This document shows, piece by piece, positions 9,337 to 60,909 of a stretch of DNA of 64,000 nucleotides; the first letter of the stretch is position 1, and every line of letters starts with the position of its first letter. Made by a program: the position numbers and the translations under genes. The notes beneath the pieces are model-generated. The model was not told where the DNA came from. It saw only the letters and a list, made by a program, of their open reading frames with translations, and ran no database searches. Source of the DNA: Planctomycetota bacterium (GTDB lineage: Bacteria; Planctomycetota; JAJSAM01; JAJVHW01); the NCBI GenBank assembly GCA_965248445.1, contig CBDFJG010000004.1:1920001-1984000 (forward strand), in the 5' to 3' direction.

Positions 9337-10201
9337 CTATGATACGGCGGCCTCCGGCCGTCGCCGCCTCTCGAACTCGATGGGCGACAGGTCCTCGATG
9401 GAGGAGTGTCGCCGCTGCGGATTGTAGAAGCCCTCGATGAAGTCGAACACCGCCAACCGCGCTGCGGACTGCGGACTTGGTCGAAAAGCTGGTGCGGTCG
9501 ATCAACTCGGTCTCGAGCGTGGCGAAGAAGCTCTCGCACATGGCGTTGTCGTAGGCGTCTCCGACCGATCCCATGGACGGCCTGACGCCCGCTTCTCTGC
9601 AGCGCCGCCCGAAGGCGAGCGACGTGTACTGGCAGCCCTGGTCGGAGTGGTGGACGACTCCGAGGGGCTGGCGCTGGCGCACGGCCATCTCGAGTGCGTC
9701 CAGCACGATCTTGGTGTGGAGCGTCGTGGCCATGGACCAGCCGACGATCCGGCGGCTCCAGACGTCGAGGACGACCGCCAGGTACAGGAACCCCGTCCAG
9801 GTCGGCACGTACGTGATGTCGGCCACCCAGAGCTGATCGGGTGCGTCGGCCGTGAAGTCGCGATCGACCAGGTCGGCGGCCGGCGCCTGACGCTGCGAGC
9901 GCTTCGTGGTCTTGGCTCTCTTGCGGCGGCTCACGCCCTCGATCCCAGCCTGGCGCATGAGGCGCTCGACGCGCTTCCTACCGATGTGGAGGCCCTCGTA
10001 GCGCAGCTCGGCATGGATGCGCGGTGATCCGTACGTCTGGCGAGAGCGCTCGTGGATCTCGCGGACGCGCTCGGTCAGGGCAGCGTCCTCGCGATCTCTC
10101 TTCGAGGGCGCACGGCCGCGCGATGCGTAGTACCCGCTCCTCGAGACGCCGAGGACCCGACACATGGTGGCCACGTCGTGCTCTGCCTGGTGATCGCTCA
10201 C
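9337..10201 (-). pseudogene. IS3 OrfB integrase core, frameshifted near the C-terminus by a 7-bp duplication
   Basis: WVADITY, HHSDQG, DNAMCESFF; removing one CTGCGGA (9462-9475) restores AVFDFIEGFYNPQRRHSS. Confidence 0.88.
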
Positions 10202-10512
10202 GAACCCGAACCCTTCTCTGGGATCGAGCGCGTCTCCCGAGCGAACCAGGCCGCGGCTTTTTTCAAGATGTCGCGCTCCTCGCGCAGCCGGCGCACATCT
10301 CGTCTGAGCTTGCGCAGCTCATCGCGCTCCGCGGTGGTCAAGCCGTCGTCACGCTCTCCGGCGTCCAGCGCGGCCTGCTTGATCCACTTGCGGATCGTCA
10401 TCTCCGTCGGCTCGAACTCGCGGCACAGGCTCATCACGCTCCGGCCGGCGCGGTGCAACTCGACGATCTGGCGCTTGTACTCCTCGTCGTACGGTGGTCT
10501 CGATCTGGGCAT
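10198..10512 (-). CDS. IS3 OrfA (HTH)
   Basis: YDEEYKRQIV...LREERDILKKAAAWF; A6G -1 frameshift site (TTGAAAAAAGCC) near 10257-10265. Confidence 0.9.
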   Translation of the reverse strand: MPRSRPPYDEEYKRQIVELHRAGRSVMSLCREFEPTEMTIRKWIKQAALDAGERDDGLTTAERDELRKLRRDVRRLREERDILKKAAAWFARETRSIPEKGSGS

Positions 10513-10579
10513 CTGGACATCCTCCCAACCTCAGTGGTCGGGTGTCCACCGAACCGGGGGAACTCCAGAGGGAGAGCGG

Positions 10580-10885
10580 ATGAGCGTCCAAAACGACGAG
10601 AACCTTGCGGAAGGGTACCTGGTCCGGCTGAGCGGGCGCGTCTGGGGGATCGCCCTCGGACTGTGCTTCGGGATCGGACTCTTCGTGTTGACCAACATCC
10701 TCGTGCTGAAGGGCGGCGAGGACATGGGGACGCACCTGGGGCTGCTGAGCCAGTACTTCTACGGCTACGAGATCGACTTCGTCGGGAGCTTGATCGGTTT
10801 CGCGTACGCGTCCGTCGTGGGCTTTGCGATCGGCTGGGGAGTCTGCCAGATCTACAACCTCGCTTCGCGCAGTCGGTCGCGGTGA
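10580..10885 (+). CDS. Small membrane protein, paralog of 8910-9302
   Basis: GGAGAG RBS; hydrophobic; LLSQYFYGYEIDFVGSLIGFAY. Confidence 0.75.
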   Translation: MSVQNDENLAEGYLVRLSGRVWGIALGLCFGIGLFVLTNILVLKGGEDMGTHLGLLSQYFYGYEIDFVGSLIGFAYASVVGFAIGWGVCQIYNLASRSRSR

Positions 10886-10986
10886 CCGCGATCGCCTGGT
10901 TGTAGGGTGCATGGAGTTCGTCGCACTGACTCGGTAGCGCACCGAGCGGCGACGGCTATGCGAGCGTTTTGGGGGGGAGGCGAGGG

Positions 10987-12555: not shown

Positions 12556-12618
12556 ATGCAACGCGGCTCTCGTGCACGAGTGCAGAACAGGCCGAGAATA
12601 CGCGCCGCCCGCGAGGCG

Positions 12619-13119: not shown

Positions 13120-14033
13120 CGGAGGTGGACCTGCCGGCGTCGGTGCGGCGTACCAGCTTGCAAAGACCGGTTCTGCAGAGGCGGTGGTCCTCGAGCGCGC
13201 CGGATACGTTGGCGGCAACGCCGGCAGCTTCGACTGGAACTCCCATCGCCTGGACTTCGGCAGCCACCGGCTCCATCCAGCCTGCGATCCGGGCGTGCTC
13301 GCAGACATCCAGAAGCTGCTCGGGGACGCTCTGCGGGATCGACCGCGGCACGGCCGTATCCGACTCCTGGGACGCTGGGTTCACTTCCCGCTCAAGCCGG
13401 TCGATCTCCTCCTGCACGCGCACCCCGCGTTCGCGGCGGGCGCAGTCAAGGACGCGATCGCCCGCGTCCTGCCCCAGAAGCCGGTTGCCGAGGAGTCGTT
13501 CGGCTCCGTCCTGAACGGGAGTCTCGGTCCGACCATCTGCCGGCACTTCTACTTCCCCTACGCCCGCAAGATCTGGGGGCATGCGCCCGAGGAACTCTCC
13601 GCCATCCAGGCGCGGCGCCGCGTTTCGGCGAGTTCGTTCGGGAAGATCCTGCGCAAGGTCCTGACCCAGGTGCCGGGACTCAAGCCGCCCGGATCGGGCC
13701 GCTTCTTCTACCCGCGCAACGGGTTCGGCAGCATCTCGGAGGCGTACGCGAGCGCCGCACGTGAGCACGGAGCCGACATTCGCATGGGTCACACGGTGAC
13801 TGCAGTGACACGGCCCGAAACCCCGGATGAGCCCTGGCGTGTCACGGCGGAGGCGGACGGCCGTTCGATCGAGCTGACCGGGGATCACATCTGGTCGACC
13901 ATTCCGGTGACGATCCTCGCGCGACTGATGCGCCCCGCGGCACCGCGGCACCGGAGGCCGTGCTCCGGGCCACGAGCGCCATCTCGTATCGAGCAATGGT
14001 GCTGGTCTACCTCGAGTTGGATGTCCAGCATTT
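13120..14033 (+). pseudogene. N-terminal part of the same oxidoreductase, inverted, start codon missing, with an internal 8-bp duplication
   Basis: GGGPAG, LDFGSHRLH and FFYP motifs; ends ...LELDVQHF, continuing into HFTEYD on the opposite strand. Confidence 0.85.
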
Positions 14034-15533
14034 GTAACCGTTCACCCCTTGACAGCGTGTGAGCCTCAGCGTGCGACGGGCAGCGGGACCATGACGGGCG
14101 GGTCGGCGCCGGTGAGGTGCGCGGCGACCGAGTCGGCGAGGAAGTCGAAGACTTGGTCGCCACGGCGTCGCAGCGTGGCCGCGGCGGTCAACACGCGCTC
14201 GGCGAAGCGGAGTCCGCGAGCGGACTGGCTTCCGAAGGAGCCCTTGCGCCAGAGCACCGCTTTGCGGACCGCGCGCTCGGCGGCGTTGTTCGTCGGACTC
14301 ACGTCCTGGGTCCGCGCATAGGTGAAGAGGGCGACCACGCGGGGGCGCAGATGGTTGGCCAGAGCCGAGTCGTCGTTCGCGATCAGTCGCTCGAGCCGTC
14401 CGCGCAGCACAGCGGCTTCGCCTTGCAGCCGGTCACGGTCGCCGTGCTCACCGAAGAGCCGGTAGCTGCGCATGACCGACTGCGCGATCATGACGCCCTT
14501 GTTGCCGAAGCGGCGATGTCCTCGCGGGCCTTCGGCCAGCGCACGGAAGGCGCGCTCGATGTGCGCCCAGCAGAGCTGGCGGCGGGCAAGTGGGTGTGAC
14601 TCGTAGGCACCCATCCGGTCGCTGATCACCGTGCCACCGAAGCGCCGCCCGATCAGCCGCCCTTTCGCCTTGGCACTGCGGCGGCGATCGATCCCGAAGG
14701 CTGTGGCGTGCTCGCTCTCCGCCGCCCACAGCCAGCACACCCGGCCCCGTTCCTTCCACGACGTCTCGTCCACGTTGGCTCGCAGCGACGTGCGGACTGC
14801 CCCGAGGGCTTCGAGGTACGACGAGTGCAGAGCGTCACTGAGCCGACGCTCACAGTCGCTGATCTTGCCCAGCGACATCTTCACACCGAAGATCTCACCG
14901 AGCAGCCGCTGCGTCTCCCGCACGCTCACGCGGTACACGCCGCGCAGCGCGCCGGCAAGTGTGGTCAGCCGCGGACCGAAGGCCCCGGTCGGCACGCCAT
15001 CGGGCAGGACCGCCGTCGTGACCGCACGACAGCGCCGGCACCGCGCCTTGTGCAGCCGGTGCTCCCGCACCGTGACGAGCACGCGCGGGAGCACCGTCAC
15101 CTGGTGCCGGTACGGATCGCCGATGCCCTGCTCGAGATCGTCGTGTCCGCACGCGTCGCAGAGGTCGGGACGGTGCTCCTTGGTCTCATCGACGTTGGAC
15201 GGATCCACCAGCTCGCGCGCCGTGCCCTCATGGCCCGGCTGTCCGCCCTGCTGGCGACCGCTACGCGGCCTTCGGCCGCGACGGCGCTTGGACCACGCCG
15301 GGTCCGACGACGGAGGCCTCGAGCTGTTGCGGGAGTCACGCTTCAGACGCGACTCGAGCTCGTCGATGCGGCGCAGATGCTTCGCTTCGCGACGCTCCAG
15401 CTCCTCGATCCAGGCCAGAAGGCCCTCGACCATCGCCCGCAGATCCTCGTCCTGCCGCTCGCCCACAACCTCTTGATCGACCGATGGCCGAACGATCTGG
15501 ATCCTGGCTCGCGACGAAGGGGTGAACGGTTAC
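14034..15533 (-). mobile_element. IS66-family single-ORF element, variant A copy 1 (1500 bp)
   Basis: 17-bp perfect IRs GTAACCGTTCACCCCTT; flanks CAGCATTT / GAGTCCGC (no direct target duplication). Confidence 0.93.
14066..15466 (-). CDS. IS66 TnpC-type transposase (variant A)
   Basis: NSSRPPSSD, GGQPGH, CxxC zinc motifs, DETSW, SDR, QLCWAH, PTNNAAERAVR. Confidence 0.93.
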   Translation of the reverse strand: MGERQDEDLRAMVEGLLAWIEELERREAKHLRRIDELESRLKRDSRNSSRPPSSDPAWSKRRRGRRPRSGRQQGGQPGHEGTARELVDPSNVDETKEHRPDLCDACGHDDLEQGIGDPYRHQVTVLPRVLVTVREHRLHKARCRRCRAVTTAVLPDGVPTGAFGPRLTTLAGALRGVYRVSVRETQRLLGEIFGVKMSLGKISDCERRLSDALHSSYLEALGAVRTSLRANVDETSWKERGRVCWLWAAESEHATAFGIDRRRSAKAKGRLIGRRFGGTVISDRMGAYESHPLARRQLCWAHIERAFRALAEGPRGHRRFGNKGVMIAQSVMRSYRLFGEHGDRDRLQGEAAVLRGRLERLIANDDSALANHLRPRVVALFTYARTQDVSPTNNAAERAVRKAVLWRKGSFGSQSARGLRFAERVLTAAATLRRRGDQVFDFLADSVAAHLTGADPPVMVPLPVAR

Positions 15534-15596
15534 GAGTCCGCGGGATCAGTCGTCATCTGCTCGCAAGAGCCGAGGCACTTTGGTCCTTCGCCGACG

Positions 15597-17128
15597 GTAC
15601 CCGTTCAGGGTATGACGATCCGCGGCCTCAGCGCGTGATCGGGAGCGCGACGAGAGCCGGCGGCGAGCGGTTGTGCGCGAGTGCCGCGCTGACGTCTGCG
15701 AGGTAATCGAAGACGCTCTCGCCACGCTGGCGGAGCGTGGCGGTGACGGTCAGGATGCGCTCGACGAAGCGGAGTCCGCGCTCGCTCTGACTTCCGTGCG
15801 TTGCGCGTCTCCACAGGACCGGCTTGCGCACCGCGCGCTCAGCGGCGTTGTTCGTCGGGGAGACGCCAGGGACGTCGGCGAAGGTCCACAGAGCCTCCGC
15901 TCGGTCGAGCAGATGCCGAGTCGTTCCGCGTACTCGGCGGTGCTTGCTGTCTGCGCCGCGCACGAGCAGCGTCAGGAGTCGGTCCCATGTGAGACGCAGC
16001 TCACGCCGCATGCGGTCGCGGTCCCCGTGCTCGCCGAAGTGACGCTGAGCTCGCATGACAGCCTGGGCGAGACGCACGGCCTGCTTGCCGAAGCGCCGGC
16101 CGCCGCGCGAGCCCTCGGCCAGCGCTCGAAAGTCCCTCTCGAGATGCGCCCAGCAGATCTGGCGGCGCTCGGTGGGATGCTGGTCGTAAGCGCCCATACG
16201 GTCGGTCACGAGGACGCCCCTGAAGCGCTTGCCCACGAGTCGCCGCATGGCCTTGGCGCTCCTGCGCCGATCGATACGATGGACCGTGGCGTGCTCACAG
16301 ACCGCGCTCCACAGCCAATGCAGCGTGCCACGACGCGACCACGGTGTCTCGTCTACATAGGCGACGCTGCTCGTGCGTACGGCCCCGAGGGCCTCGATGT
16401 GCGCTGAGGAGATGGCTCCCGACACCCGCTCCTCGATCGCACTGACCGTGCCCGGTGACATCGAGACGCCGATGACGTCACGCAACAGACGACTGGTCTC
16501 GCGCCGCGACAGGCGGAAGACGCCGACCAGAGCCGCGGTGAGCGCACAGAGTCGCGGGCCGAAGGGACTCGCCGTCACACCGCTTGGCAGCGAGGCAGTG
16601 GACGTGGCGCCACAGTCCGTGCACCGTGCCCGGTGCAACCGGTGCTCGGTCACCTGGATCAGCCGTGGCGGGACCTCGAAGACCTGCTGGCGTGTCGGGG
16701 CGCGATCGATCGGGACGAGCACGTCGCTCCCACACGCGCTGCACTCGCGCGGGCGGTGGTCCTCTACGCCATCGACCTCGGACTCGTCCACGAGCTTGCG
16801 CGTCGCCCCTTTGTGGCCGGGCTGCGCACCCTGGCGCTTGTCCGACGGCGGCTTGCGCCGCCGCCGCTTCTTGGACCACGACGGATCCGAGGACGGTGGG
16901 CGCGAGGAGGTGCGGGAGTCCCGGCGAAGACGGCTCTCGAGATCGTCGATCCGTGCCGCCTGCCGCTCGATCACCTCCGCCTGCTCGGCAATCGTCTCGT
17001 CCCGAGCGTCCAGACGACGGGTCAGGCGCTCGACCAGATCACGCAGCTCATCGGTGCCCACATCCGATTCATCGACCGAACGGAAAGCGATCTGGATCCG
17101 AGCTCAGAACCAAGGGCTGAACGGGTAC
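15597..17128 (-). mobile_element. IS66 variant C, complete
   Basis: IRs GTACCCGTTCAG; 8-bp target duplication CGCCGACG (15589-15596 / 17129-17136). Confidence 0.95.
15628..17061 (-). CDS. IS66 transposase (variant C)
   Basis: TSSRPPSSD, DETPW, QICWAH, PTNNAAERAVR. Confidence 0.93.
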   Translation of the reverse strand: MGTDELRDLVERLTRRLDARDETIAEQAEVIERQAARIDDLESRLRRDSRTSSRPPSSDPSWSKKRRRRKPPSDKRQGAQPGHKGATRKLVDESEVDGVEDHRPRECSACGSDVLVPIDRAPTRQQVFEVPPRLIQVTEHRLHRARCTDCGATSTASLPSGVTASPFGPRLCALTAALVGVFRLSRRETSRLLRDVIGVSMSPGTVSAIEERVSGAISSAHIEALGAVRTSSVAYVDETPWSRRGTLHWLWSAVCEHATVHRIDRRRSAKAMRRLVGKRFRGVLVTDRMGAYDQHPTERRQICWAHLERDFRALAEGSRGGRRFGKQAVRLAQAVMRAQRHFGEHGDRDRMRRELRLTWDRLLTLLVRGADSKHRRVRGTTRHLLDRAEALWTFADVPGVSPTNNAAERAVRKPVLWRRATHGSQSERGLRFVERILTVTATLRQRGESVFDYLADVSAALAHNRSPPALVALPITR

Positions 17129-17474
17129 CGCCGACGTGCCGGGTGTCTCCCCGACCAACAACATCGCCGAGCGCGCCGTGCGCAAACCAGTGCTCTGGCG
17201 CCGCGGCACCCACGGCAGCCAGAGCGAGCGAGGACTGCGCTTCGTCGAGCGCATCTTGACCGTCACCGCCACCTGCCGGCAGCGCGGCGACAACGTCTTC
17301 GACTACCTCGTCGCCGCGTCGCCGCCACCAGCGCCGCCGGGCTCGGGCAACCGCCGCCGACTCTCGTCGCGCTGCCGATCAGTCGCTGAGCACGGGGCTG
17401 CTCACTCATGACCTGAACAGGTACGCGCGGCGGGGCCTTTTCTGAGTTGTACGTAGATCCTCAGTTCGTGGCTG

Positions 17475-17915: not shown

Positions 17916-17948
17916 AATCACCTCCAGTGTTCCAAAACAAAAGATACG

Positions 17949-20276: not shown

Positions 20277-20538
20277 GGCGGTTCCTTCCATCCGAGCCCT
20301 GTTCGTCCCCGCCCGAGACCACGCTGCGATCGGCAGTCCAGACTGTGCGGAGGTGCGGAGACGCACTCTTTCACCGGGGAGCATATCAGGGAGTGCGTGC
20401 CGGTCTGCCGGTCAAGAGGACAGCGGAGTGGGAGATGCGTCGAGATGGGAGCGTAGACCTCGTCACAGGAGACAAGAAGGGGCTGCCCTTGATCGACTGA
20501 GAGCCCTCGGCGGCCTCTTGGACCTCCGCTCAACTCAA

Positions 20539-21402: not shown

Positions 21403-22902
21403 GTAACCGTTCACCCCTTGACAGCGTGTGAGCCTCAGCGTGCGAGGGGCAGCGGGACCATGACGGGCGGGTCGGCGCCGGTGAGGTGCGCGGCGACCGA
21501 GTCGGCGAGGAAGTCGAAGACTTGGTCGCCACGGCGTCGCAGCGTGGCCGCGGCGGTCAACACGCGCTCGGCGAAGCGGAGTCCGCGAGCGGACTGGCTT
21601 CCGAAGGAGCCCTTGCGCCAGAGCACCGCTTTGCGGACCGCGCGCTCGGCGGCGTTGTTCGTCGGACTCACGTCCTGGGTCCGCGCATAGGTGAAGAGGG
21701 CGACCACGCGGGGGCGCAGATGGTTGGCCAGAGCCGAGTCGTCGTTCGCGATCAGTCGCTCGAGCCGTCCGCGCAGCACAGCGGCTTCGCCTTGCAGCCG
21801 GTCACGGTCGCCGTGCTCACCGAAGAGCCGGTAGCTGCGCATGACCGACTGCGCGATCATGACGCCCTTGTTGCCGAAGCGGCGATGTCCTCGCGGGCCT
21901 TCGGCCAGCGCACGGAAGGCGCGCTCGATGTGCGCCCAGCAGAGCTGGCGGCGGGCAAGTGGGTGTGACTCGTAGGCACCCATCCGGTCGCTGATCACCG
22001 TGCCACCGAAGCGCCGCCCGATCAGCCGCCCTTTCGCCTTGGCACTGCGGCGGCGATCGATCCCGAAGGCTGTGGCGTGCTCGCTCTCCGCCGCCCACAG
22101 CCAGCACACCCGGCCCCGTTCCTTCCACGACGTCTCGTCCACGTTGGCTCGCAGCGACGTGCGGACTGCCCCGAGGGCTTCGAGGTACGACGAGTGCAGA
22201 GCGTCACTGAGCCGACGCTCACAGTCGCTGATCTTGCCCAGCGACATCTTCACACCGAAAATCTCACCGAGCAGCCGCTGCGTCTCCCGCACGCTCACGC
22301 GGTACACGCCGCGCAGCGCGCCGGCAAGTGTGGTCAGCCGCGGACCGAAGGCCCCGGTCGGCACGCCATCGGGCAGGACCGCCGTCGTGACCGCACGACA
22401 GCGCCGGCACCGCGCCTTGTGCAGCCGGTGCTCCCGCACCGTGACGAGCACGCGCGGGAGCACCGTCACCTGGTGCCGGTACGGATCGCCGATGCCCTGC
22501 TCGAGATCGTCGTGTCCGCACGCGTCGCAGCGGTCGGGACGGTGGTCCTTGGTCTCATCGACGTTGGACGGATCCACCAGCTCGCGCGCCGTGCCCTCAT
22601 GGCCCGGCTGTCCGCCCTGCTTGCGACCGCTACGCGGCCTTCGGCCGCGACGGCGCTTGGACCACGCCGGGTCCGACGACGGAGGCCTCGAGCTGTTGCG
22701 GGAGTCACGCTTCAGACGCGACTCGAGCTCGTCGATGCGGCGCAGATGCTTCGCTTCGCGACGCTCCAGCTCCTCGATCCAGGCCAGAAGGCCCTCGACC
22801 ATCGCCCGCAGATCCTCGTCCTGCCGCTCGCCCACAACATCTTGATCGACCGATGGCCGAACGATCTGGATCCTGGCTCGCGACGAAGGGGTGAACGGTT
22901 AC
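21403..22902 (-). mobile_element. IS66 variant A copy 2 (transposase 21435-22835)
   Basis: Same 17-bp IRs, near-identical to A1; flanks AAGCCCTT / GCTCCGAC. Confidence 0.93.
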
Positions 22903-28420: not shown

Positions 28421-28506
28421 GAGCAAACGACACATTTCGAGACTAGATCGTGCCCTTTCGGGCCGCCTGGGGCCATGTTGGGGCCATGTCGTCGCGGTCA
28501 TCGGCG

Positions 28507-44500: not shown

Positions 44501-44579
44501 CCGGCGCCGACCCGCCCGTCATGGTCCCGCTGCCCGTCGCACGCTGAGGCTCACACGCTGTCAAGGGGTGAACGGTTAC
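41539..44579 (+). mobile_element. IS66 variant A copy 3, interrupted by variant B, with a 2-bp deletion near 42142
   Basis: Same IRs as A1/A2; 5' half 41606-42318, 3' half 43854-44547; flanks GTCCAACT / GACACGTC. Confidence 0.92.
42319..43853 (+). mobile_element. IS66 variant B, complete (transposase 42385-43818)
   Basis: IRs GTACCTGTTCAG; 8-bp target duplication GTGGAAGG (42311-42318 / 43854-43861). Confidence 0.95.
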
Positions 44580-46303: not shown

Positions 46304-49300
46304 CTAGAATGTTCCCTGGTTGATGCGACTCAAATACGTTGCCTGCCATTGGCTACCGTTCGTGAGTCTCTTCCGCATTTCCCAGACAGAGATGGGCCTT
46401 GAGCATCCGCAAGAACAGTAGATCGGATCGAAGATATCGTAGAAATCCTCGATATCCTCGTCTGACGCGCCCGCTGGGTGCTTCGAGTTATTCTCCTTCG
46501 ACTTGTTCGCCTTGATCATCGCCTGCAAGCGCGCGCGAGTATTCTTGGTCACCTGCGCGTGGCTGTCGGGTTTCGCCTTCTTGTTGTTCTTGTGATGCTC
46601 GTCTTCGTGAAGTCCTGCCACGAATACGTCCCAGAACGCCTCGCCGAAGCAGGGGCAGAAGGCGTCGGGATCTGGCATGTCCAGGCGAATCTTGTTCGTG
46701 GTCGGATCCGTCTCGCCGGCGGCGGCGCCTCCATGCCCCCCAGATGGCGGCGACTCCGGCCCGTACCCGGACGTGTCGTCGGCGCTTCCGTCGTCGAGTC
46801 CATCGTCACCCATCTGCTTGATCAGACCGTCAATCACTTTCATAGCCTTCTTTGCCGCCTGGTCATTGTCTGCCTGAGACGCATCGTCCAGCCCCATTGC
46901 GTCTGTACGACGCACGGGGGAATTCGAAGCGTACATGTACAGGCTCGGTCCATCCGCATATCCGGTCGCGTCACGCTGCACGAACCTCCGCAACTCCGCC
47001 GAGTACGCCCGCGCCCGGTAGTGGTACAATCCGCTCTCCTCGTCCATCCGCCTCCCGGTGAACATCCACGGGTTTTCGATCTGCGATGAGGTCACTGAGC
47101 CGCCGTTGATGTCCGAGATCGCGACCGTCCCGTACGGGTCGTAGCTGTAGCTCTCGACCACAGCCTCGTCGGGATCCGTGACGTGCGTGACCGACCCCAC
47201 GAGCTGCCCGTGGTAGTAGAAGCGCTTGAGCTCCGTGGTGTTGCTGTCGCTGTCCACGTCGGCGACGTCCGGCGCTTCCATCACCGCCGGATCGTCGATC
47301 TTGTCACTGTAGGCGTACAGGCGAAGCAGATCGGTTCCGTCGTACTCCTCAATCACGCTGTTGCCGTCATAGATGTAGCGCGACGTGTCGCTGCCGACGG
47401 TCTTCTTCGTGCGTCGGCCGCGGCCGAGCGCGTCGTACTTGTACTCGCCGAGCACGGCAGAGTCGCTCTTGCGCGTCACCTTGAGGAGGTGGTTGTGGGC
47501 GTCGTAGGCGTAGGTGTTGGTGCCGTCGTCTGTGAGGTTGCCGCTGGCGTCGTAGGTGTGCGTCGTGCCGCCGACGGCCGTGTACTCGTTGACGGCGTTC
47601 GACGTGTAGCTGGTCGTCGTCGCACTTCCGCCGTAGGGCGTCACCACGTAGGACGTCAGGTTGAAGACATCGTCCATGTTGTAATCGCGCTTCTCGTCGT
47701 ACGTCTCGGTGCCGGGGTTGGCGAGTTCGTTCGCCGGATCCGCCACCGCCATCAGGGTCTTCGTCAGACGGTTCGCCTGGTCGTAGGTGTACAGTTCGCC
47801 GGCGCCTGACTCGTGGCCTCGTGCCTCGTAGAGGGGGTTCGAGTTCGCGTCCCACGCGTAGTCGAACGACGCGAACTCCGGGCTGCTCGAATCCTCGTGC
47901 GCGATCTCGACGATGCGGCGGTAGCCGTCGTAGCCGACCGTCGTGGTCGTGCCGTTCCCGAAGGTGACCGTGTCCCGTCGGTGGTGCCGGCCGATCACGC
48001 CGAAGGACACGATCGAGGTGTCCGTCTTGTCGTCCACCTCCATCAGGCAGCAGACCTCGTCGTAGGTCCGCCGCGCCTCGAACGTTGAGGGGTATGTCAC
48101 TCTGGTCTTGTTGGACTCCGCGTCCCACGTGTACGTGACGGTCTTCGCCTCGCTGCCCAGTGGATTGCTGCCCTGCTTCTCGGTCAGGACGCGCGAGAGC
48201 GAGTCGTATGTGAGCTGCACGATGGCGTCGTTGTCTTTGGCCTCGGTCAGACGGTTGAGGCCGTCGTAGGCGAAGTCCTCGTCGGTGTCGCCGAGGACGC
48301 CAGTGCCCTTGGTGATGTCGCGGGCGATCAGACGGTCGAGATCGTCGAAGTCCTGGTCGAACTCGGTGCCGTTCTGATCGATGATCGTCGTTGCGTTGCC
48401 GTTCGCATCGAGACTGAGCGTGACCACGCCGGAGTCGGCGTAGGTGACTTCCTCAAGGCGGTTCATGAGGTCGTAGTCGTACTGCGTCTCGTTCCCCGCG
48501 TCGTCGCGATAGACGATCACGTTGTTGTGGATGTCGAAGTCCCACTCGATGTCAAGGGACGCGCCCGACCCCAGATCGACGCTCTTCTTCGTGATGCGTG
48601 CCAGGCCGTCCGAGAACAACTCCGTGTCGGTGCCATCCGGCTCGATCTCCACTCTCGCCACGCTGAGCGCGTCGAGCTTCCACTCCGTCACGAGACTGTT
48701 CGCGGAGTTCGCGGCGTCGATGCGCTTCTGCGTCCTCCTTCGGTTCAAGGCGTCGTAAGTGAACTCCGTCTCGTAGACCTCGCTGACCGTCGTGCCGTGC
48801 AGGAACTCAGTCTCCTTGATCTCCGTGACGTTCCCGTTCGCATCGAGCGTGTACTCCTCCAGGTTGCCGATGGCATCGGTGTCCTTCGTGAGCCGGCCCG
48901 CGCCGTCGTAGACACGAGTCGTGTCGTATCCCCGCCGGTCGTTGAGCACCGTGGTGAGGCCGCGCCTGTCGAGTGTCCTCGTCCGATACAACCAGGTGTC
49001 CGGCGTTCCTTGGAGCACCGCCTCGCTCTGCCAGAGCCGGTTGATCTCGTCGTAGTTGCGCTTCTCGTGGGCGAGGAGGTCGTCTGCCGACGGGTCGTTG
49101 TCCTGCCAGCTCTTGCGTTCGGTCAGGTTGTTCGCCTTGTCGTACGCGAGCTGCGTGTAATGGCCCAACGCGTTGGTGCCTTGGGTGGGCCGATCGAAGA
49201 GGTCGAACATCGCTGTCGAACTCTTGCCGCGAGGGTTCGTCACGGAGGTCCGATTGCGGTTCCCGTCGTAATCGATGGTCGTCGTGGCGGCGATGTGTCC

Positions 49301-51502
49301 CGTTCCGGGGTCGGCGACGCGCTTCTGCAGTAAGTCGCGCTCGTCGAACGTGAACTCGACACGTACGTCACCGCGCTGCATGGCGGACCGGTTGTCGTTC
49401 GGGTCGTACTCGAACGTCGTGGTGCGAGTCGTCGTGGCGGTGATGTCCTCGACGGCGGACGCTAGGTCGTTCTCGACGGTGTACGTGTAACTCGCCTCCC
49501 ACCACTGGGGAGTGGAGCTCCAGATGCCCAAGTGATCGATGTTCTTGATCTCGCGCTTGGTGACATTGAGGTTGCCGTCGTAGGTCAACTTCGTGATGTA
49601 GCCCAGAGCGGTGGGGGCGGCAACCTGCGTGACGTTGCCGTACCGCTCGACCGTCAGGTTGGTCGTGTTCCCGCGGGGATCCGTGATCGCATTGACGTCA
49701 CCCCAGTTCTCGTAAGCGATGGTGGTCAGGAGTCCCAGTCCGCCTTGATCGACGGTCTTCGTCGACAGGAGAGCCTTCGTGTTGCCGGTTGCGAAGTACG
49801 TGTACGCCGTCACGTACCCCTCACCGTCGGTGAAGGAAGCCACTGTGCCGTCCGTGTTGAACGTGTAGCTGTTCGTGATGGTCACGTTCGGCGTGAGGTT
49901 CGTGATCGTCGGGAACGTGATCCTCGTCGGCTGGCCCGCCGCGTTCAGGGTGTACGTCGTCGTGTTCCCTCGACCGTCCGTGTAGCTCGTGACGCCGTAG
50001 TTCTTGGTCGAGTCATAGGCCCAAGTGTTGACGATGTCGTTCGTCGCACTGTCGGCCGCCGTCATGTCCTCCTTGTGGCGCCGCTTGGTTGCGAGCTTCG
50101 CCGTGTTGAGCGTGTATTTGAGCCCGTTGCCACGCGGGTACGTCACGGTGAGGAGATAGCCGGCGGAGTCGTGCGCCCACTTGGTCGTGTAGTCACCCTC
50201 GCCGGTCCGCACGCCGCGGTTCGTCTCCTCGACGACCTGCGTGGGAGTGAGCGTCGAGGCGCTGTAGGTCCACACCTCACGGTTGCCGGCGCGGTCGGTC
50301 ACGGTCGTCTGGTTCGTGAGCGGCGTGTACGCCAGCGTCATCGTGTCCGTGCCGCCGATCGTCTGCACGGTGACGCGGTCCGTGCCGTCGTACTGATTAT
50401 TGATGTGCGAATTCCCGCGGCCGTCGATCTCCGCGATCATGTTGCCGTTCAGCGCCGCGGTGGCGGAGCCGTTGATGTAGAGGAACTGCGTCCAGACGCC
50501 GCCGGGGAAGCTCGTCGTCGGCGGCCCCTCGATGCGCATGAGCTGCGTCTTGATGTTGTAGTGAAGTGTCCACGCGGCTCCATCGGCCGTCGTAATCGAC
50601 ATCAGGCGCCCGGTCGCCGGGTAGTACGCCAGCGTGTGCGCCAGCCCGCGGCTGTCGCCGATCATCGTGATCTGGCCGGCGGGGTTGCGCGCGTAGTTCG
50701 TCGTGTTACCGAACGCGTCCGCGACCGACGTGAGCCAGCCGTTCGAGTAGGTCCACGTGCCGCCCTCGGGGAGCGTTCGTACGTAGCCGCCAGGGGTCGC
50801 CGTGAGGGTGTCCCGCAGGCCGACCGGTGTCGTGTAACCGACGCCGTTGAACAGGTACGTGCTGAGGACGCCTGTCTCCTTGAGGATCGCGACGTCGCCG
50901 GCGCCGTTGACGGTGTAGCTAGAATCGAGCACGCTGCCCATGCCGTACCCGACTGAGCTGTCGAACGCGCTCTGCGAGTTGTAGGTCAGGGCGATGCCGG
51001 ATTCGCTCGTGCTGGCCACCATCATCGTGGGGGCGTTCGAGACCGAGCAGCACTCCGGCATCAGGATCATCGGGCGGACGCCGCGGGATCGGCCGATCGT
51101 GTAACGCCGCGCGAACGCGCCGTTGTGAATGGCCAAGCTGCGCCCCACGAACGCCGACTGCCCCGAGGGCGCAAAGGGCTCCGCCGTCATGAAACCGGCG
51201 AGCGTCGGGACCGTGGCTCCGTCGTGCACACCCGGGCCACCGTCGAGCGGGGACGGGTCGATGAGATCGAGCAAGGTGTCGAAGTCCGAGTCGGGGTTGT
51301 TGGGATCGGTGCCCGTCTCGAACACCTCCTTGAAGTCGTTCCAGCCATCGCCGTCGCTGTCGGCGGCTGCCGGGTTGGTGCCGAGGATCGTGCCCTCGAA
51401 GACGTCGTCCAGTCCGTCGCCGTCGGTGTCCGCGGCGAACGCCGCTGTCGTCCAACCGAAGAGCAGCACGGCAGCCAGCGAGAACGCGTGCTTCGTCCGC
51501 AT
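46304..51502 (-). CDS. RHS/YD-repeat protein (1732 aa) with Sec signal and variable C-terminal domain
   Basis: Signal ending AAFA; DTDGDG/DSDGDG Ca-binding repeats; YD repeats; core PWMFTGR..D.ESGLYHYRARAY...YMY..NSP...DAMGL. Confidence 0.93.
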   Translation of the reverse strand: MRTKHAFSLAAVLLFGWTTAAFAADTDGDGLDDVFEGTILGTNPAAADSDGDGWNDFKEVFETGTDPNNPDSDFDTLLDLIDPSPLDGGPGVHDGATVPTLAGFMTAEPFAPSGQSAFVGRSLAIHNGAFARRYTIGRSRGVRPMILMPECCSVSNAPTMMVASTSESGIALTYNSQSAFDSSVGYGMGSVLDSSYTVNGAGDVAILKETGVLSTYLFNGVGYTTPVGLRDTLTATPGGYVRTLPEGGTWTYSNGWLTSVADAFGNTTNYARNPAGQITMIGDSRGLAHTLAYYPATGRLMSITTADGAAWTLHYNIKTQLMRIEGPPTTSFPGGVWTQFLYINGSATAALNGNMIAEIDGRGNSHINNQYDGTDRVTVQTIGGTDTMTLAYTPLTNQTTVTDRAGNREVWTYSASTLTPTQVVEETNRGVRTGEGDYTTKWAHDSAGYLLTVTYPRGNGLKYTLNTAKLATKRRHKEDMTAADSATNDIVNTWAYDSTKNYGVTSYTDGRGNTTTYTLNAAGQPTRITFPTITNLTPNVTITNSYTFNTDGTVASFTDGEGYVTAYTYFATGNTKALLSTKTVDQGGLGLLTTIAYENWGDVNAITDPRGNTTNLTVERYGNVTQVAAPTALGYITKLTYDGNLNVTKREIKNIDHLGIWSSTPQWWEASYTYTVENDLASAVEDITATTTRTTTFEYDPNDNRSAMQRGDVRVEFTFDERDLLQKRVADPGTGHIAATTTIDYDGNRNRTSVTNPRGKSSTAMFDLFDRPTQGTNALGHYTQLAYDKANNLTERKSWQDNDPSADDLLAHEKRNYDEINRLWQSEAVLQGTPDTWLYRTRTLDRRGLTTVLNDRRGYDTTRVYDGAGRLTKDTDAIGNLEEYTLDANGNVTEIKETEFLHGTTVSEVYETEFTYDALNRRRTQKRIDAANSANSLVTEWKLDALSVARVEIEPDGTDTELFSDGLARITKKSVDLGSGASLDIEWDFDIHNNVIVYRDDAGNETQYDYDLMNRLEEVTYADSGVVTLSLDANGNATTIIDQNGTEFDQDFDDLDRLIARDITKGTGVLGDTDEDFAYDGLNRLTEAKDNDAIVQLTYDSLSRVLTEKQGSNPLGSEAKTVTYTWDAESNKTRVTYPSTFEARRTYDEVCCLMEVDDKTDTSIVSFGVIGRHHRRDTVTFGNGTTTTVGYDGYRRIVEIAHEDSSSPEFASFDYAWDANSNPLYEARGHESGAGELYTYDQANRLTKTLMAVADPANELANPGTETYDEKRDYNMDDVFNLTSYVVTPYGGSATTTSYTSNAVNEYTAVGGTTHTYDASGNLTDDGTNTYAYDAHNHLLKVTRKSDSAVLGEYKYDALGRGRRTKKTVGSDTSRYIYDGNSVIEEYDGTDLLRLYAYSDKIDDPAVMEAPDVADVDSDSNTTELKRFYYHGQLVGSVTHVTDPDEAVVESYSYDPYGTVAISDINGGSVTSSQIENPWMFTGRRMDEESGLYHYRARAYSAELRRFVQRDATGYADGPSLYMYASNSPVRRTDAMGLDDASQADNDQAAKKAMKVIDGLIKQMGDDGLDDGSADDTSGYGPESPPSGGHGGAAAGETDPTTNKIRLDMPDPDAFCPCFGEAFWDVFVAGLHEDEHHKNNKKAKPDSHAQVTKNTRARLQAMIKANKSKENNSKHPAGASDEDIEDFYDIFDPIYCSCGCSRPISVWEMRKRLTNGSQWQATYLSRINQGTF

Positions 51503-52002
51503 CAGCGGCCCCCTTCCCCGAACAGGCCACCGCGGATCGCGAGCGCCATGCCCTGGAGACGCTGGTTCGTGCCCGCCTTCGCGTTCACGTACGAGCTCAC
51601 GTCCTTCCACTTCTTGCTGTCGGACTTCTCTGCGCGACACCAGGCAGCGAGCGCGGCGCACCGCACGCCGTCGGTCCGCTTGGTGTCCTCGTAGATGATC
51701 TTCAGCTTCGCGCGAGCGCCTGAGTAGTCGCCGCGACCGATCGTGGCGATCGCCATCGCGGCCAGCTTGTCGTCCTTGCTCGCCGCCATGGCAGTAAGCG
51801 CGCTCCGAGACGCGCCGGTGCCGATGCCCAGAAGCTCCTCCATCAGCGCCGCGCGACGCGAGACACCGATCGGCGACTCGCAGATCGTTCGGAGGCGTGT
51901 GACCCTCTCGTTGCTCGGGCCAGAGTGCGCCGTGGCTGACAGCGCCACGGCCACCAGGGCAAGAAGTCCGAACGCGAGATTGCGTGAACGAGACCGGGTC
52001 AT
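51502..52002 (-). CDS. Secreted helical (HEAT-like) protein coupled to the RHS gene
   Basis: GGAGG RBS; signal peptide; TGATG overlap with the RHS start. Confidence 0.75.
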   Translation of the reverse strand: MTRSRSRNLAFGLLALVAVALSATAHSGPSNERVTRLRTICESPIGVSRRAALMEELLGIGTGASRSALTAMAASKDDKLAAMAIATIGRGDYSGARAKLKIIYEDTKRTDGVRCAALAAWCRAEKSDSKKWKDVSSYVNAKAGTNQRLQGMALAIRGGLFGEGGR

Positions 52003-52029
52003 CGGAAGTTCCTCCATTTGCTGCGCTCG

Positions 52030-52574
52030 AGGTCCCGCAGGACCTCGGGCACGGACTCGCGCACCCGCCGGTGGAAGCTCCTCGCAGAGCACGACGGCAG
52101 TCGATGCCCCAGCGACTTGACGGCGCCGCGTGCGGCATTCACGAGTTTCGTGCGCGCAGAGACCACGCGCTCCCGCGCGCGCAGCAGCGCCATGTCGGCC
52201 TGCATGGACTCGCCCCGGTGGACCACCGGATGCAGCAGGCCGGGATGCCCCGCACCGAGCTGCGCCAGCACCAGTGCGTCGCGCCGATCCGTCTTCTTCG
52301 GCGAGTCCCAGATCGCTCGCAGCCGTCGCGCGTCCGCCACGATCACGTCGTGGCCGTGGGACGCGACCAGCCGGCTGATCCACGGAGAGTGCGTCCCGCT
52401 CTCCATCACCACCTTGGACCGCTCCGTCTGCTCGAAGAACTTGCCGAGCGCCTTGCGTGTCGCCCCGACCCGTCCCTCCCCGACGACCTCCCCCGTCTTG
52501 CGGTCGAGCATGCAGACATGCACCACGCGATCACCCAGATCCATCCCGATCACCAAGCGTGTACCCTTCGCCAT
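52030..52574 (-). pseudogene. 5' fragment of an IS110 transposase
   Basis: GMDLG, MESG and KTDRRDA DEDD motifs; C-terminal domain absent. Confidence 0.85.
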
Positions 52575-56105: not shown

Positions 56106-56144
56106 ATCCCGAGCACGAGACGCTGCTCAGTGCCGGAGGACGTG

Positions 56145-57248
56145 ATGAACCCGCTGCAACGAGCCCTAACGACCGCGCTGTTCACGTTGACCCTGTTGCC
56201 GGGCTGCAACGCCATGGGCCCCACGGCGGTCCGTGGTGCGCCGTTACCGTACAACGAAGCCATTGCGGCGACGCGCGACGAGCAGCAGCTCCTCAACCTG
56301 GTTCGGCTCCGCTATCGCGACGTGCCGCTCTTCCTCGACGTGGGCAGCCTGACGACGCAGTACACGTTCGACAGCTCGCTCTCAGCCAGCTCCACTTTCG
56401 TAGACGGTTCGGCGGAGGACAGTCCGAGGTTCACCACGGGCGGCTCGATGAAGTGGTCGGAGAAGCCGACGGTCAGCTACTCCCCGCTCCAGGGCGAGAA
56501 GTTCGTCAAGCAGATGATGGCGCCGGTGCCGCTCGAGATTCTGGCGTTGCTCACCCGCTCGGGCTGGAGTTCGGGGCGCGTGATGCGGCTGGCCGTCCAG
56601 AGCATGAACGGCGTCCTGAACGCCCCGACCGCATCCGGACCGACGCCGGGGAGTCCGCCCGTGTACAAGGACTTCCGTCGGCTGGGCGGGCTGATCCGGG
56701 AACTCCAGCAGACCGGCCAGGCCCACGTCGCCATCTCAGGCGCGGCGGATGGTCCGCGGCTGGGCTGGGCGCTCCGCGCGGGCGGCACCGAGACGGCCCA
56801 GGCCGCCGAGATCCGGCGCATCCTCCGGCTGCGCGAGGGCCGGACCTTCTACCCGATGGTCGCCGCGTACGACGATGCGCTGACCGATGACGGAGACCGC
56901 ATCCGCGTCACGCCCCGGTCGTTCCTCGGCATCCTGTTCTACTTGTCGCACGCCGTCGAGGTTCCCGAGGAGCACTCCGCGCGGGGGTGGGTGACCAACA
57001 CCACGGCTGCCGACGGGACGCCGTTCGACTGGGGCGAAGTCACGGGCGACCTGCTCCGTGTCCGGACCTCGTCGTCCAAGCCGGACGGCGCGTACGTCGC
57101 GATCCCCTATCGCGGCGCGTGGTTCTACATCGACGACGCGAACCTCGAGTCGAAGACGACGTTCGCGCTGCTGTCCTACCTGTTCGCGCTCCAGGCCGGC
57201 GACCGCAAGTCGGTCACGCCCGCGCTGACGCTTCCGATCGGGGGCTAG
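56145..57248 (+). CDS. Putative lipoprotein of unknown function
   Basis: GGAGG RBS; lipobox LPGC; LLNLVRLRYRD.P.FL, PTVSYSPLQG; C-terminal LTLPIG. Confidence 0.8.
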   Translation: MNPLQRALTTALFTLTLLPGCNAMGPTAVRGAPLPYNEAIAATRDEQQLLNLVRLRYRDVPLFLDVGSLTTQYTFDSSLSASSTFVDGSAEDSPRFTTGGSMKWSEKPTVSYSPLQGEKFVKQMMAPVPLEILALLTRSGWSSGRVMRLAVQSMNGVLNAPTASGPTPGSPPVYKDFRRLGGLIRELQQTGQAHVAISGAADGPRLGWALRAGGTETAQAAEIRRILRLREGRTFYPMVAAYDDALTDDGDRIRVTPRSFLGILFYLSHAVEVPEEHSARGWVTNTTAADGTPFDWGEVTGDLLRVRTSSSKPDGAYVAIPYRGAWFYIDDANLESKTTFALLSYLFALQAGDRKSVTPALTLPIGG

Positions 57249-57340
57249 CCCGCACCTCCCGACGCGGACGACGACACCGAACCAGTGCTCCTGATTCTCT
57301 CCTGACTCCGAATCGCCGCTGGACGCTGCGACCGAAGGCG

Positions 57341-58560
57341 CTACTTCACGCCCAAGAGGCGGAAGAGGTGGAAGCGCGAAGCGCGCGGGTAGCCAGTCGG
57401 AGGTCTTCTCACGCTCGCACAGCTTGGACGTGAACTCCTTCCACTCCGCTTCGAGAGCCTTGGAACCGGCGCGGTCGGTGATCCCCATCGCGTCGTAGAA
57501 CAGCTTGGACGTCCAGATCCCGCCCTCGGCGAGCGGCTCCGTGGGCTTCGGCACGACCCACTCGCGCTCGAGATACCGCACGAAGCGGTCGCGGTACTTC
57601 GGCTGTCCGAGTTCCTCCGCATACCAGAGGAAGTACACGAGACTCCATGCGCGCGCGTAGTAGAGGTTCGCGTAGACGGCGTGGACCGCGTCGAGCCAGG
57701 CGACCCAGCGCTCGTTCTCGGCCTGCGCGCGCGTGAGGCGCGGCGACACGCCAAGGACGGCCTGATCGAGTTCGCCGCCGTCCAGGGGCGTCATGAGCGC
57801 GTTCAGCGACCAGTCACTCCACTGCAGCTTCGGAAAGGCCTGTTCCACGATCCAGATGAGCTCCATGCGGCTGTCGAGCGGCTGCATCCAGCGCCGTGCG
57901 TCTCCGTCGCCCGCGTACGCCGAGAAGAACTCCGCGAAACCCTCCGAACTCCACAGCGGTTGCGACGAGCCGCGGTCCCAGGCAGGCGGATCGCCCCCCG
58001 CGGCGGTCGACAGCTCGCGCGTGTAGAAGTGGATGAGCTGATGCACGCCTTCGTGGCACTGGGTCTGGTAGGTCGCGTACGGCTCCTCGTGTGTGCGCCC
58101 GTCGTGCGTCACGATGAAGCGTGGCTCCCGCTGCGAGTAGAACGCGCACACGCCGGCCATGCGGGGGCTCCACGCGTAGTACTGGCGGTTGAACCGCTCG
58201 AAGTCCTTCTCGCGCGAGAACGCGTGGATCTTCAACAGCGTGCCGAACTCCGCGTTGTCGGGGCCGTACTTCTTGAAGTCGAAGAGCGGTCCCAACTCGC
58301 GATGCCAGCCGTCGTAGAGCGTCGGGAACAACGTCGTCGTCTCGCGCAGGATGCGCTGCGCGCGGTTCATCTCCACCTCGTCCACGTCGGCAAGGTCCTT
58401 CCGCGGCGAACCCCCGACGGAGACGAAGATCACGTACGGGCCGACGGCCTCCCGCAGCGCCGGGTAGTCCTTCATCACCTCGAGGGTGCGCTGATAGACA
58501 CCCCACTTCTCGACGCCGAGCCAGTAGGGACTCTGCAGCCACGCCGACGACGGAGAGCGC
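57341..58560 (-). pseudogene. 5'-truncated DUF1570-like zincin peptidase with a 7-bp duplication near its 3' end
   Basis: HEGVHQLIH, W..EGFAEF, YARAWSLVYFL; removing one AAGCGCG restores the stop at 57341. Confidence 0.75.
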
Positions 58561-58602
58561 CACCTCACAGCGTCGATCGCTCCCGTCGGTCGCGTGACGA
58601 TC

Positions 58603-58853
58603 TGCAGCGGTAGTGCAGCGGTAGCCGGAATCGGCCTGAAACGCGGGGTCCGAATGGGGCGCGCGAAGTCGCCGTAACTCGCTCGTGCGGCAATGGTTAC
58701 GCGTGGTCGGGGCGAGAGGATTTGAACCTCCGGCCTCTTGCTCCCGAAGCAACGAGAGATCGTTGTCCAGCAAGGACTTACGCGTGTCCCTCGCTGCACA
58801 AGCCGCACAAGAGGCAGGAGCGGGCGGACGTTGTGCAGCGGTAGTGCAGCGGT
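58603..58853. repeat. Arm-type tandem repeats around a tRNA fragment (att site)
   Basis: TGCAGCGGTAG twice at 58603-58624; TGCAGCGGTAG+TGCAGCGGT at 58834-58853; partial inverted CGCTGCA at 58792-58798. Confidence 0.75.
58704..58752 (-). tRNA. 3' half of tRNA-Pro(CGG); att core, not a full tRNA
   Basis: TTGC-TTCGGGA-GCAAG anticodon arm, GGAGGTTCAAATCCTCT T-arm, CGCCCCG-ACCA end; no D-arm or 5' acceptor strand. Confidence 0.85.
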
Positions 58854-58854
58854 C

Positions 58855-59627
58855 CCGCGCAACGGCTCAAGCGCCCGGGACATCCGCCGCTCGATGTTGC
58901 TGACGCTGCCGACCGAGATCTTCACGTCGAAGGCCTCGGAGAGCAGACGTGCCGCCTCCGCCCGGCTCAGTCGGTAGGCGGCCACGAGGGTGACGACCAG
59001 AGCCTGCAGTCGAGGCCCGAAGGCGCTGGGGGACACGCCTTCGGGCAGATCCGCGAAGACCGCGTCGCCGCAGTGCCCGCAGAGCCGCCCGCGTAGGCGG
59101 TGCTCGGTGATCGTCGCCAAGAGCGGCGGGATCTCGGTGACCTGGTGGCGGCGAGGGGCGATCCCACCGTCCACGAGCTCTACGTGTCCGCACGTGCGGC
59201 ACGCGCTCGGCTCGTGGTCGACGATCTCATCGACGTCGCCTGGATCGACGAGGTTGCGCGTCTTGCCCGGATGGCCGGGCTGAGCGCCCTGCTTCTTGTC
59301 AGACGGCGGACGGCGACGGCCGCGGCGCTTGGACCACGGGCCGTCACTCGACGGAGGGCGTGAGGACGTGCTGGAGTCGCGCCTGAGGCGCGACTCCAGC
59401 TGCGCGATGCGCCCGATGCGCCGCAAGTGCTGGCGCTCTCGACCCTCGAGCTCGGCGATGCGACGCAGCAGGCGACCGACGAGCTCGCGCAGCTCCGCGA
59501 TCACAGCGCGGAGGTCGTCGGCAAGCCCGTTGGAGTCCACACCTCATAGATCGACCGACGATGCGCTCTTCGGGATCCAGTCCAAATCAGCCTCCGATCG
59601 GGGCTTCCGACCGACGTGAAGGGTTAC
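58855..59627 (-). mobile_element. 5' half of IS66 variant E (transposase starts at 59540, truncated)
   Basis: End GTAACCCTTCAC; TSSRPPSSD, GAQPGH, CxxC; stops before the DET motif. Confidence 0.88.
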
Positions 59628-60905: not shown

Positions 60906-60909
60906 CCTC

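Follow-up and report, generated by a model that had tools for sequence, protein, structure and literature searches.

Precise or simple excision of insertion sequences (IS) is described as rare in bacteria (PMC9397093). IS256 excises precisely by slippage with loss of one target copy, and Muta1 with a target duplication at the donor is excised precisely in about 90% of cases (both PMC5225508). The IS-excision enhancer (IEE) acts via microhomology and gives rise to precise excision or deletions (10.1101/2023.06.07.543989; PMC9943667), and the accessible part of the first of these reports makes no mention of IS66. Spacers of 5 to 8 bp have been given for ISCth4 and IS256 (PMC7780238), and the absence of deletion junctions for IS types was considered consistent with known mechanisms (PMC5001619). 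For haloarchaea it was raised as a possibility that a departing transposon may leave its target duplication behind and cause a frameshift (Dyall-Smith 2011, PMC3119063), the removal documented in the accessible text of that paper being repeat mediated and trace free. Our literature search, with subscription papers and supplements outside its reach, returned no account of IS66 excision scars or IS66 donor sites. Here we report on perfect tandem duplications of 7 to 8 bp in the genome of a Planctomycetota bacterium (5.40 Mb in 4 contigs, 68.7% GC), which were first noticed in a stretch of 64,000 bp (G000:C4:1920001-1984000, referred to as the window; plain position numbers are those of the window), and on their relation to the IS66 elements of this genome. 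A class of these duplications is heritable, breaks genes and lies at IS66-type target sites throughout the genome.

Gene-breaking duplications of 7 to 8 bp

The original prediction had listed five perfect tandem duplications in the window with nothing between the copies, had read them as excision footprints of IS66 and had stated that removal of one unit restores the frame or motif in each case. All five are present, the repeat placed at 57372 beginning at 57371, and removal of a unit does restore the frame at 9462, 13935, 17309 and 57372, whereas the 9-bp repeat at 59405 is in frame. The 7-bp duplication at 9462 to 9475 (minus strand) causes a frameshift near the 3' end of orfB of an IS3-family element (9304 to 10567). 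The same allele is found at two further loci, i.e., in 3 of the 10 full IS3 copies, and these three differ by 0 to 1 nt from six intact copies; intact copies without the 7 bases are also present in public contigs. Since the copies are nearly identical and two of them have their own 3-bp target duplication, we regard this as one event, the scarred allele having been copied to three loci. At 13935 to 13950 (plus strand), 99 bp from the end of IS66-A, an 8-bp duplication shifts the frame of a gene for an FAD oxidoreductase, and comparison with orthologues in two relatives placed the frame switch exactly at 13935. The 8-bp duplication at 17309 to 17324 (plus strand) lies in what is left of the 3' part of an IS66-C copy (17129 to 17424); it had been said to be missing from the intact sister copy, and indeed, the 8 bp are absent at 7 sister loci. 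The last codons of a gene labeled DUF1570-like in the original prediction are shifted by the 7-bp duplication at 57371 to 57385 (minus strand), and its +1 frame matches the C terminus found in the closest relative among six. At 59405 to 59422 (minus strand), the 9-bp repeat adds three residues to the coiled-coil N terminus of IS66-E and is also found in a 94%-identical sister copy (G000:C4:89386-90370). Because it is in frame and common to the sister copy, it was not counted as a footprint; it is probably ordinary slippage or chance. Two 8-bp tandem repeats missed in the first reading, at 20345 to 20360 and 20398 to 20413 (no strand assigned), are further candidates that lie 1,058 and 1,005 bp, respectively, from an IS66-A copy; homologues of this region were limited to weak matches in 4 of 300 genomes. 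The window also has 11-bp tandem repeats at 58603 to 58624 and 28468 to 28489, each common to other repeat copies.

The feature seen in the five examples extends through the whole genome and is stronger than the examples implied, with one of the five dropping out. Raw repeat numbers were unremarkable. In the window, 7, 4, and 2 repeats of 7, 8, and 9 bp were counted, with 7.4, 1.7, and 0.9 expected from a Markov model, and in the genome there were 501 repeats of 7 bp (481 expected) and 164 of 8 bp (158.5 expected). The raw length spectrum was discarded as evidence, there being no 7- to 8-bp excess in the window or the genome and the peak appearing just in filtered tests. Therefore, the polarity of the repeats was examined site by site. 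A codon-phase model was used to score each tandem repeat for a frame change of matching size, with a score above 1.0 taken as frame breaking. By this test, 11 of the 164 8-bp repeats break a frame (0.9 expected), as do 8 of the 501 7-bp repeats (0.7 expected; three of the eight are the one IS3 event). None of the 57 repeats of 10 to 17 bp did so, and those of 4 and 5 bp were at background (3,000 sampled of 19,008 and 6,166). The predicted peak at 7 to 9 bp is supported for 7 and 8 bp; the 9-bp case of the original prediction does not belong to the frame-breaking class. Other score thresholds gave results in agreement, and a retrained model gave, in this genome, 12 of 164 and 7 of 501 for 8 and 7 bp, respectively. 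In 1.93 of the 5.6 Mb of a relative (G001), in which IS66 and Ku were not found, the retrained model gave 1 of 108 repeats of 8 bp and 1 of 368 of 7 bp, with 1.1 and 1.4 expected; as a control this relative is limited, since it is probably under stronger selection.

Twenty candidates were subjected to profile and orthologue tests. Eight were confirmed as splits within a gene (galE, a sigma-54 activator, a PF09350 protein, GT4, mnmA, an ECF sigma factor, PMT_2, and FG-GAP), one (a TPR kinase) is plausible, and four, nuoH/nuoI among them, are gene junctions. The mnmA gene (G000:C3:69700-71100), broken by its 8-bp duplication, is the sole copy in the genome, and an IS66 element cuts it 273 bp further on. 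At G000:C3:805532 the overlap of the nuoH stop and the nuoI start forms a perfect 8-bp tandem repeat of its own, a false positive of the frame test. An unbiased census of frameshifts, made by comparison with paralogues and with the proteins of G001, yielded 42 loci. Most of these were changes of 1 to 2 bases, two were 8-bp and four were 7-bp duplications (two events, one of them recognized by inspection alone), one was a G run, and several loci had no assigned cause. Comparison of repeat copies with each other gave 202 insertions, of which 32, 13, and 6 were tandem duplications of 1, 2, and 3 bp; there were three of 7 bp (one event) and two of 8 bp, and none of 4 to 6 or of 9 or more bp. Altogether, nine 8-bp and four 7-bp events were confirmed.

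That IS66 makes 8-bp target duplications had been stated on the basis of two cases in the window, and both were verified. IS66-B (family F3; 15597 to 17128, minus strand), an element of 1,532 bp that sits in an IS66-C copy and has a single open reading frame (ORF) of 477 amino acids (aa), is flanked by matched copies at 15589 to 15596 and 17129 to 17136; the intact IS66-C (family F8; 42319 to 43853, plus strand; 1,535 bp), which sits in an IS66-A copy (41539 to 44579), is flanked by matched copies at 42311 to 42318 and 43854 to 43861. The IS66 elements have GTA...TAC terminal inverted repeats and an 8-bp target duplication, and 53 of 95 left ends match a same-family right flank over 8 bases and none over 9 bases. 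From 183 half-sites we built a model of the IS66 target, on which true sites emptied in silico were scored leave-one-out. Its strongest signal is avoidance of G at position -2, two bases outside the duplication (p=2e-15), other biases being weaker. The nine confirmed 8-bp sites had a mean of 0.64 on this model, compared to 0.99 for 54 true sites emptied in silico, -1.12 for random in silico duplications (p=0.0002), and -0.52 for other 8-bp repeats (p=0.019). In an independent set, 36 8-bp repeats near IS elements scored 0.23 versus -0.76 for 114 far ones (p=0.002). The proposed link of the duplications to IS66 is supported by the target signature. Five chosen 7-bp sites, four of them confirmed and one not, gave p=0.019 on the same model.

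Could the duplications have arisen by ordinary replication slippage, or are they chance repeats kept by a decaying genome? Raw counts at chance would fit this, as would the existence of longer duplications and the microhomology at the joints, which amounts to 1 to 4 bases at all five scored 7-bp sites and to 5 bases at one 8-bp site. Slippage gives no account of a peak at 8 bp with none at 4, 5, and 11 to 17 bp among the frame-breaking repeats, nor of the IS66 signature, and we consider this origin very unlikely. Microhomology is absent at 3 of the 9 confirmed 8-bp sites, with a mean of 1.3 that is near the 0.87 of true sites. In the 7-bp class it is as expected if one base is lost through an overlap of an 8-bp pair, and equally as expected from slippage.

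The 8-bp repeats are also unevenly distributed. In a model-free count, 40 of 162 were found within 1.2 kb of any IS, compared to 14.5 expected (p=3e-9), and for 7-bp repeats the count was 63 of 466 versus 41.6 expected (p=7e-4). No such excess within 1.2 kb was observed for repeats of 4, 5, 6, 9, 11, or 12 bp, and the GC contents near to and far from IS elements are similar (67.8 versus 68.9%). The 8-bp enrichment is equal by IS type, with 22 repeats near IS66 (6.6 expected) and 23 near non-IS66 elements (8.6 expected); this argues against local hopping of IS66, an explanation that was dropped. Since the excess is equal near IS66 and other families, we read it as survival in already dead DNA. 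Of 14 8-bp candidates, 4 are no more than 300 bp away from an IS66 end, and none is near IS1380 or IS3 elements. The near-IS excesses together with the confirmed far sites suggest a total of roughly 30 to 60 scars in the genome, which may be set against about 105 IS66 elements.

The equal enrichment near non-IS66 elements would also be compatible with another family being the source. Families F7, F9, and F10 have 8-bp target duplications as well (F7 and F9 are IS1595 by NCBIfam), and IS256 remnants were detected in the genome, so that any of the three IS1595-type families or IS256 might have made the scars. However, the nine confirmed sites sum to +5.8 on the IS66 model and to -21.6 on an IS1595 model, a noisy one built from 25 half-sites, and IS66 is about four times as numerous as the three IS1595-type families, which have about 24 copies together. 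An origin from one of these families is very improbable. Combining all the readings in which IS66 is involved, we hold an IS66 origin of the scars to be highly probable.

Finally, the duplications might be consensus artifacts of a population mixed for the presence of the IS. Four public runs, which derive from one sample of one study and are probably the source of the assembly, were examined for contigs, which drop rare alleles. In each of the four runs, a 513-bp contig (13549 to 14061) spans the site at 13935 without a gap and with 0 differences, its depth being close to that of the chromosome (14.3, 8.8, 18, and 4 compared to 11.7, 6, 13.3, and 3.6 for its neighbors), and the sigma-54 site is likewise spanned in every run by contigs with 0 differences. 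Both sites with listed spanning contigs carry the duplication. The many 1-base frameshifts, which may be assembly errors, and the origin of all runs from one sample speak for an artifact; the contigs without differences speak against it, as does the IS3 allele, which recurs at three loci and at two of them in an element that has a target duplication of its own. For the site at 13935, the sigma-54 site, and the IS3 allele an artifact is largely refuted, and as a general explanation it is hardly credible. A minor IS-carrying subpopulation in the sample could have gone unseen, since contigs drop rare alleles.

Proposed flush excision with end joining, and the alternatives

The sequence left at the joints bears on how the scars may have been made. 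A GTAC spacer between target copies was found 6 times (about 4.9 expected), and each of these looks like a normal repeat in coding sequence. No enrichment was seen for remnants of the element (GTAC, GTA, GT, CATG, and others) between target copies, which argues against a footprint of the Tc1/mariner type, and there was no near-IS excess of 8+1+8 or imperfect period-8 repeats, which argues against a flank-hairpin footprint of the hAT/Transib type. A complementary spacer was present in 15 of 28 cases near IS elements and 199 of 411 far from them. Excesses at period 13 (p=0.001) and period 16 (p=0.006), which appeared among about 60 tests, had no common spacer and were set aside. Because the scars lack palindromic bases and element ends, the cuts would have to be flush, or a hairpin would have to be opened at the tip.

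A search for Ku/LigD homologues, which the original prediction had proposed, revealed an intact locus for nonhomologous end joining (NHEJ) at G000:C1:348-352 kb. It encodes LigD (636 aa; phosphoesterase, ligase, and polymerase domains in this order), Ku (288 aa), and a second NHEJ ligase (310 aa), all with open reading frames. TIGR02772 (234 bits), TIGR02779 (237 bits), and TIGR02778 (252 bits) are above cutoff, and TIGR02777 reaches 126 bits versus a cutoff of 144 on the 636-aa reading, which starts inside the domain. At G000:C1:348-353 kb (L146:8362-13466) the LigD-Ku-ligase locus is followed by an ORF whose translation reads as BRCT-like, MerR-like, and TPR parts. Among the 17 class genomes, this was the only one in which Ku was found (1 of 8 if just genomes with a completeness of 90% or more are counted; the relatives are incomplete), which suggests that Ku/LigD was gained recently.

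With these components present, flush double-strand excision of IS66 followed by Ku/LigD end joining of the donor has, in our judgment, an even chance of being correct. Flush cuts on both strands would release the element, each donor flank would keep its own 8-base target copy, and the flanks would then be rejoined by Ku/LigD; that an element once occupied the sites, that it left by flush double-strand excision, and that Ku/LigD did the sealing are inferences. A scar of 7 bp would be the same scar minus one base at the joint, often lost via a one-base overlap, and scars would survive mainly in dead DNA near IS elements of any family. A wider form of this reading, in which horizontally gained Ku/LigD lets the cell survive excision and seals the donor, so that eukaryote-style footprints act as an irreversible gene-killing ratchet and 8-bp duplications are a general fossil record of IS66 in Ku-positive bacteria, falls somewhat short of even and is put forward tentatively.

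Several observations weigh against flush excision with end joining. The number of IS66 copies has grown to about 105, and the flanks of IS66-A are unmatched at 25 of 49 left and 30 of 48 right ends; unmatched flanks are also produced by replicative transposition (PMC4471558). No site was both filled and empty within the genome, the comparison set being without a genome of the same genus, and the contigs show one allele. The listed contig joints included neither one that bridges an entire IS66 nor a circle junction, contigs being prone to drop rare variants. Eleven duplication units equal existing target duplications, none of them at the same locus by context. The claim that the sites are emptied IS66 donors is supported in its link to IS66 and in its 7- to 8-bp peak, and not in the former occupancy, for which the genome offers no filled and empty pair. 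Also, there is a general background of duplication, since repeats of 11 to 17 bp exceed the Markov model (11 bp, 17 versus 3.6), 10-bp repeats are in excess near IS elements (7 of 20 versus 1.8; p=0.001), and one 5-bp frame-breaking duplication turned up in the census. The 7-bp near-IS set was not significant on the IS66 model (p=0.13), and of the 20 candidates, beside the 4 gene junctions, 6 had no usable homologues and 1, an IS256 remnant, gave no decision. Furthermore, the link to Ku comes from one genome: Ku/LigD is present, as the proposed end joining would require, and its sealing role is a correlation in this genome. In 0.56 Mb from G044 and G142, which are rich in IS66 and gave no Ku match, 0 of 14 8-bp and 1 of 32 7-bp repeats scored as frame breaking (0.5 and 1.3 expected), a control of low power that counts for little, since an estimated 3 scars or so would be expected at the rate of the present genome and the target length was not recovered. 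Several IS66 copies of G044 (4 loci: L191, L192, L195, and L199) are broken by a 10-bp duplication that has an overlap of 6 bases and looks like slippage.

The transposase also has a bearing on the matter. To our knowledge, the chemistry of IS66 transposition has not been worked out. In the IS66-B transposase D237, D287, E408, and the motif C303-x-x-H306 are invariant in 109 aligned sequences, and its structure was modeled with a pLDDT of 91. Searches of the PDB by sequence gave no real match. The closest solved fold is that of ISCth4, a copy-out/paste-in element of the IS256 family (Z of 13.7, root mean square deviation of 6.0, 281 aligned residues, 12% identity), a further point against flush excision, followed by the P element (Z of 9.7), Hermes (9.0), and Transib (7.8). 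The modeled fold leans slightly against plain cut-and-paste; it does not decide the chemistry, since the clade holds both copy-out and cut-and-paste enzymes.

An IS256-like fold need not excise on both strands if the IS66 transposase makes its 8-base staggered cut in the target without a stable insertion, either by target hydrolysis or by an insertion that is reversed after gap filling. LigD, which fills in 5' overhangs in mycobacteria, would then fill the ends, and blunt ligation would double the 8 bases. This predicts 8 bp, the IS66 target preference, no remnants or palindromic bases, and Ku/LigD, and it is in keeping with the lack of a filled and empty pair. The scar predicted is the same as that of flush excision, and sequence alone cannot separate the two. 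However, DDE transposases cut the target with the 3' ends of the element itself as nucleophiles, and we know of no description of concerted two-strand target hydrolysis or of full reversal in vivo; we consider such target cutting unlikely, yet it is the foremost competitor of flush excision.

If, on the other hand, IS66 moves by copy-out/paste-in, one strand might be circularized with a spacer of 0 to 1 base, the gapped donor strand sealed, and the empty allele fixed by replication, Ku being incidental. The fold of ISCth4 as the closest one and the strong expansion in copy number would agree with this, and a spacer of 0 to 1 base would give both 8- and 7-bp scars. The spacers given for ISCth4 (6 to 8 bp) and IS256 (5 to 7 bp) in PMC7780238 would instead remove most of one target copy, and deletion junctions are reported as absent for all IS types in Klebsiella in PMC5001619, with one deletion junction (DJ) read each tabled for two types. 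Moreover, no IEE-like protein was recognized. In the search for IEE homologues that had been suggested, the 4 PF22548 matches look like primase-helicase replicases, IEE itself not having been used as the query. Copy-out as the source of the scars is quite unlikely. The four primase-helicase genes have an AEP-TOTE domain and lie in repeated integrated regions, and a RecD-like helicase adjoins in L141:1291-3402 and L143:1-2385.

Resident IS elements and other features of the genome

About 8% of the assembly is sequence that occurs at least three times. The IS complement comprises two IS1380 families, three single-ORF IS66 families (A/F2, B/F3, and C/F8), two IS3-type families, and the three families with 8-bp targets; the IS66 total is given as merged intervals and includes a fourth, degenerate type. 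IS66-A (14034 to 15533, minus strand) is 1,500 bp in length, has a single ORF of 466 aa, and has mismatched left and right flanks; a second copy lies at 21403 to 22902 (minus strand). The IS66 profile NF033517 gives 247 and 295 bits for A and B, respectively (cutoff, 180), and PF03050 matches A, B, and C. With 1,500 to 1,535 bp and one ORF of 466 to 477 aa, the three elements do not have the canonical tnpA-tnpB-tnpC layout of IS66; they are of the single-ORF form, which we take to be the ISBst12 group. Both target copies are in place in just 2 of 40 full IS66-A and 14 of 32 IS66-B elements, target duplications are often split between copies, and the IS66-A variants are mosaic, which indicates that the copies recombine heavily with one another. 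In five cases an IS66-A left end is paired with a second left end in reverse, and in one case with the right end of an IS66-C; transposition as a composite or with mixed ends is suggested by these pairs.

An IS3-type element of 1,641 bp (about 20 copies) forms an inverted pair at 60905 to 62554 and 62780 to 64000; its ends have fixed extra bases outside TGT...ACA and no matched target duplication. IS1380 (about 70 plus 13 copies; 1281 to 2956 in the window, and genome-wide) has the target CTAG and forms head-to-tail arrays, e.g., at G000:C4:1198088-1203117, and the repeated target of the IS1595-type family F7 is the end of the smaller IS1380 family. A gene for an RHS-repeat protein of 1,944 aa occupies 46304 to 52138, and a second near-complete copy is present elsewhere in the genome.

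Comparison with known excision systems

The scars may be a sequence readout of the donor step of IS66 and a first clue to how IS66 moves. They bear on the fate of the donor after bacterial cut-and-paste and on whether end joining alters that fate. IS-driven gene loss would be undercounted, because a scar leaves a frameshift without a marking element, whereas the insertion of an IS is reversible through precise excision. The frame-breaking spectrum, the near-IS excess, and the target signature can be applied to any complete genome.

Among the bacterial systems, the copy-out elements IS256 and ISCth4 likewise make an 8-bp target duplication and have the closest fold, but their donor is regenerated and neither leaves both target copies behind. 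In Escherichia coli, excision of the IS3/IS30 type promoted by IEE also removes an IS from the chromosome in a transposase-linked manner. Kusumoto in 2011 reportedly listed deletions of the IS alone in which both 3-bp target copies stay behind, and single IS629 cases with both target copies kept are likewise reported. Flush double-strand excision of the Tn10/Tn5 type generates blunt flanks with both target copies, i.e., the substrate needed here; such excision is said to have been described for the Tn10 type by Benjamin and Kleckner in 1992. In hosts without Ku, the Tn10/Tn5 donor is lost or is restored by recombination. IS4-family enzymes are not among the top fold matches of the IS66 transposase.

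From the footprints of eukaryotic cut-and-paste elements (hAT, MULE, Tc1/mariner, and P) the scars differ in their bacterial host and in their clean form (8+8 or 7+8), neither palindromic bases nor element remnants having been detected. hAT and MULE have an insertion domain and a CxxH motif in common with the IS66 transposase, and the P element, Hermes, and Transib are among its fold matches. The eukaryotic footprints likewise consist of an empty site with extra bases derived from the target, cause frameshifts, and are sealed by end joining.

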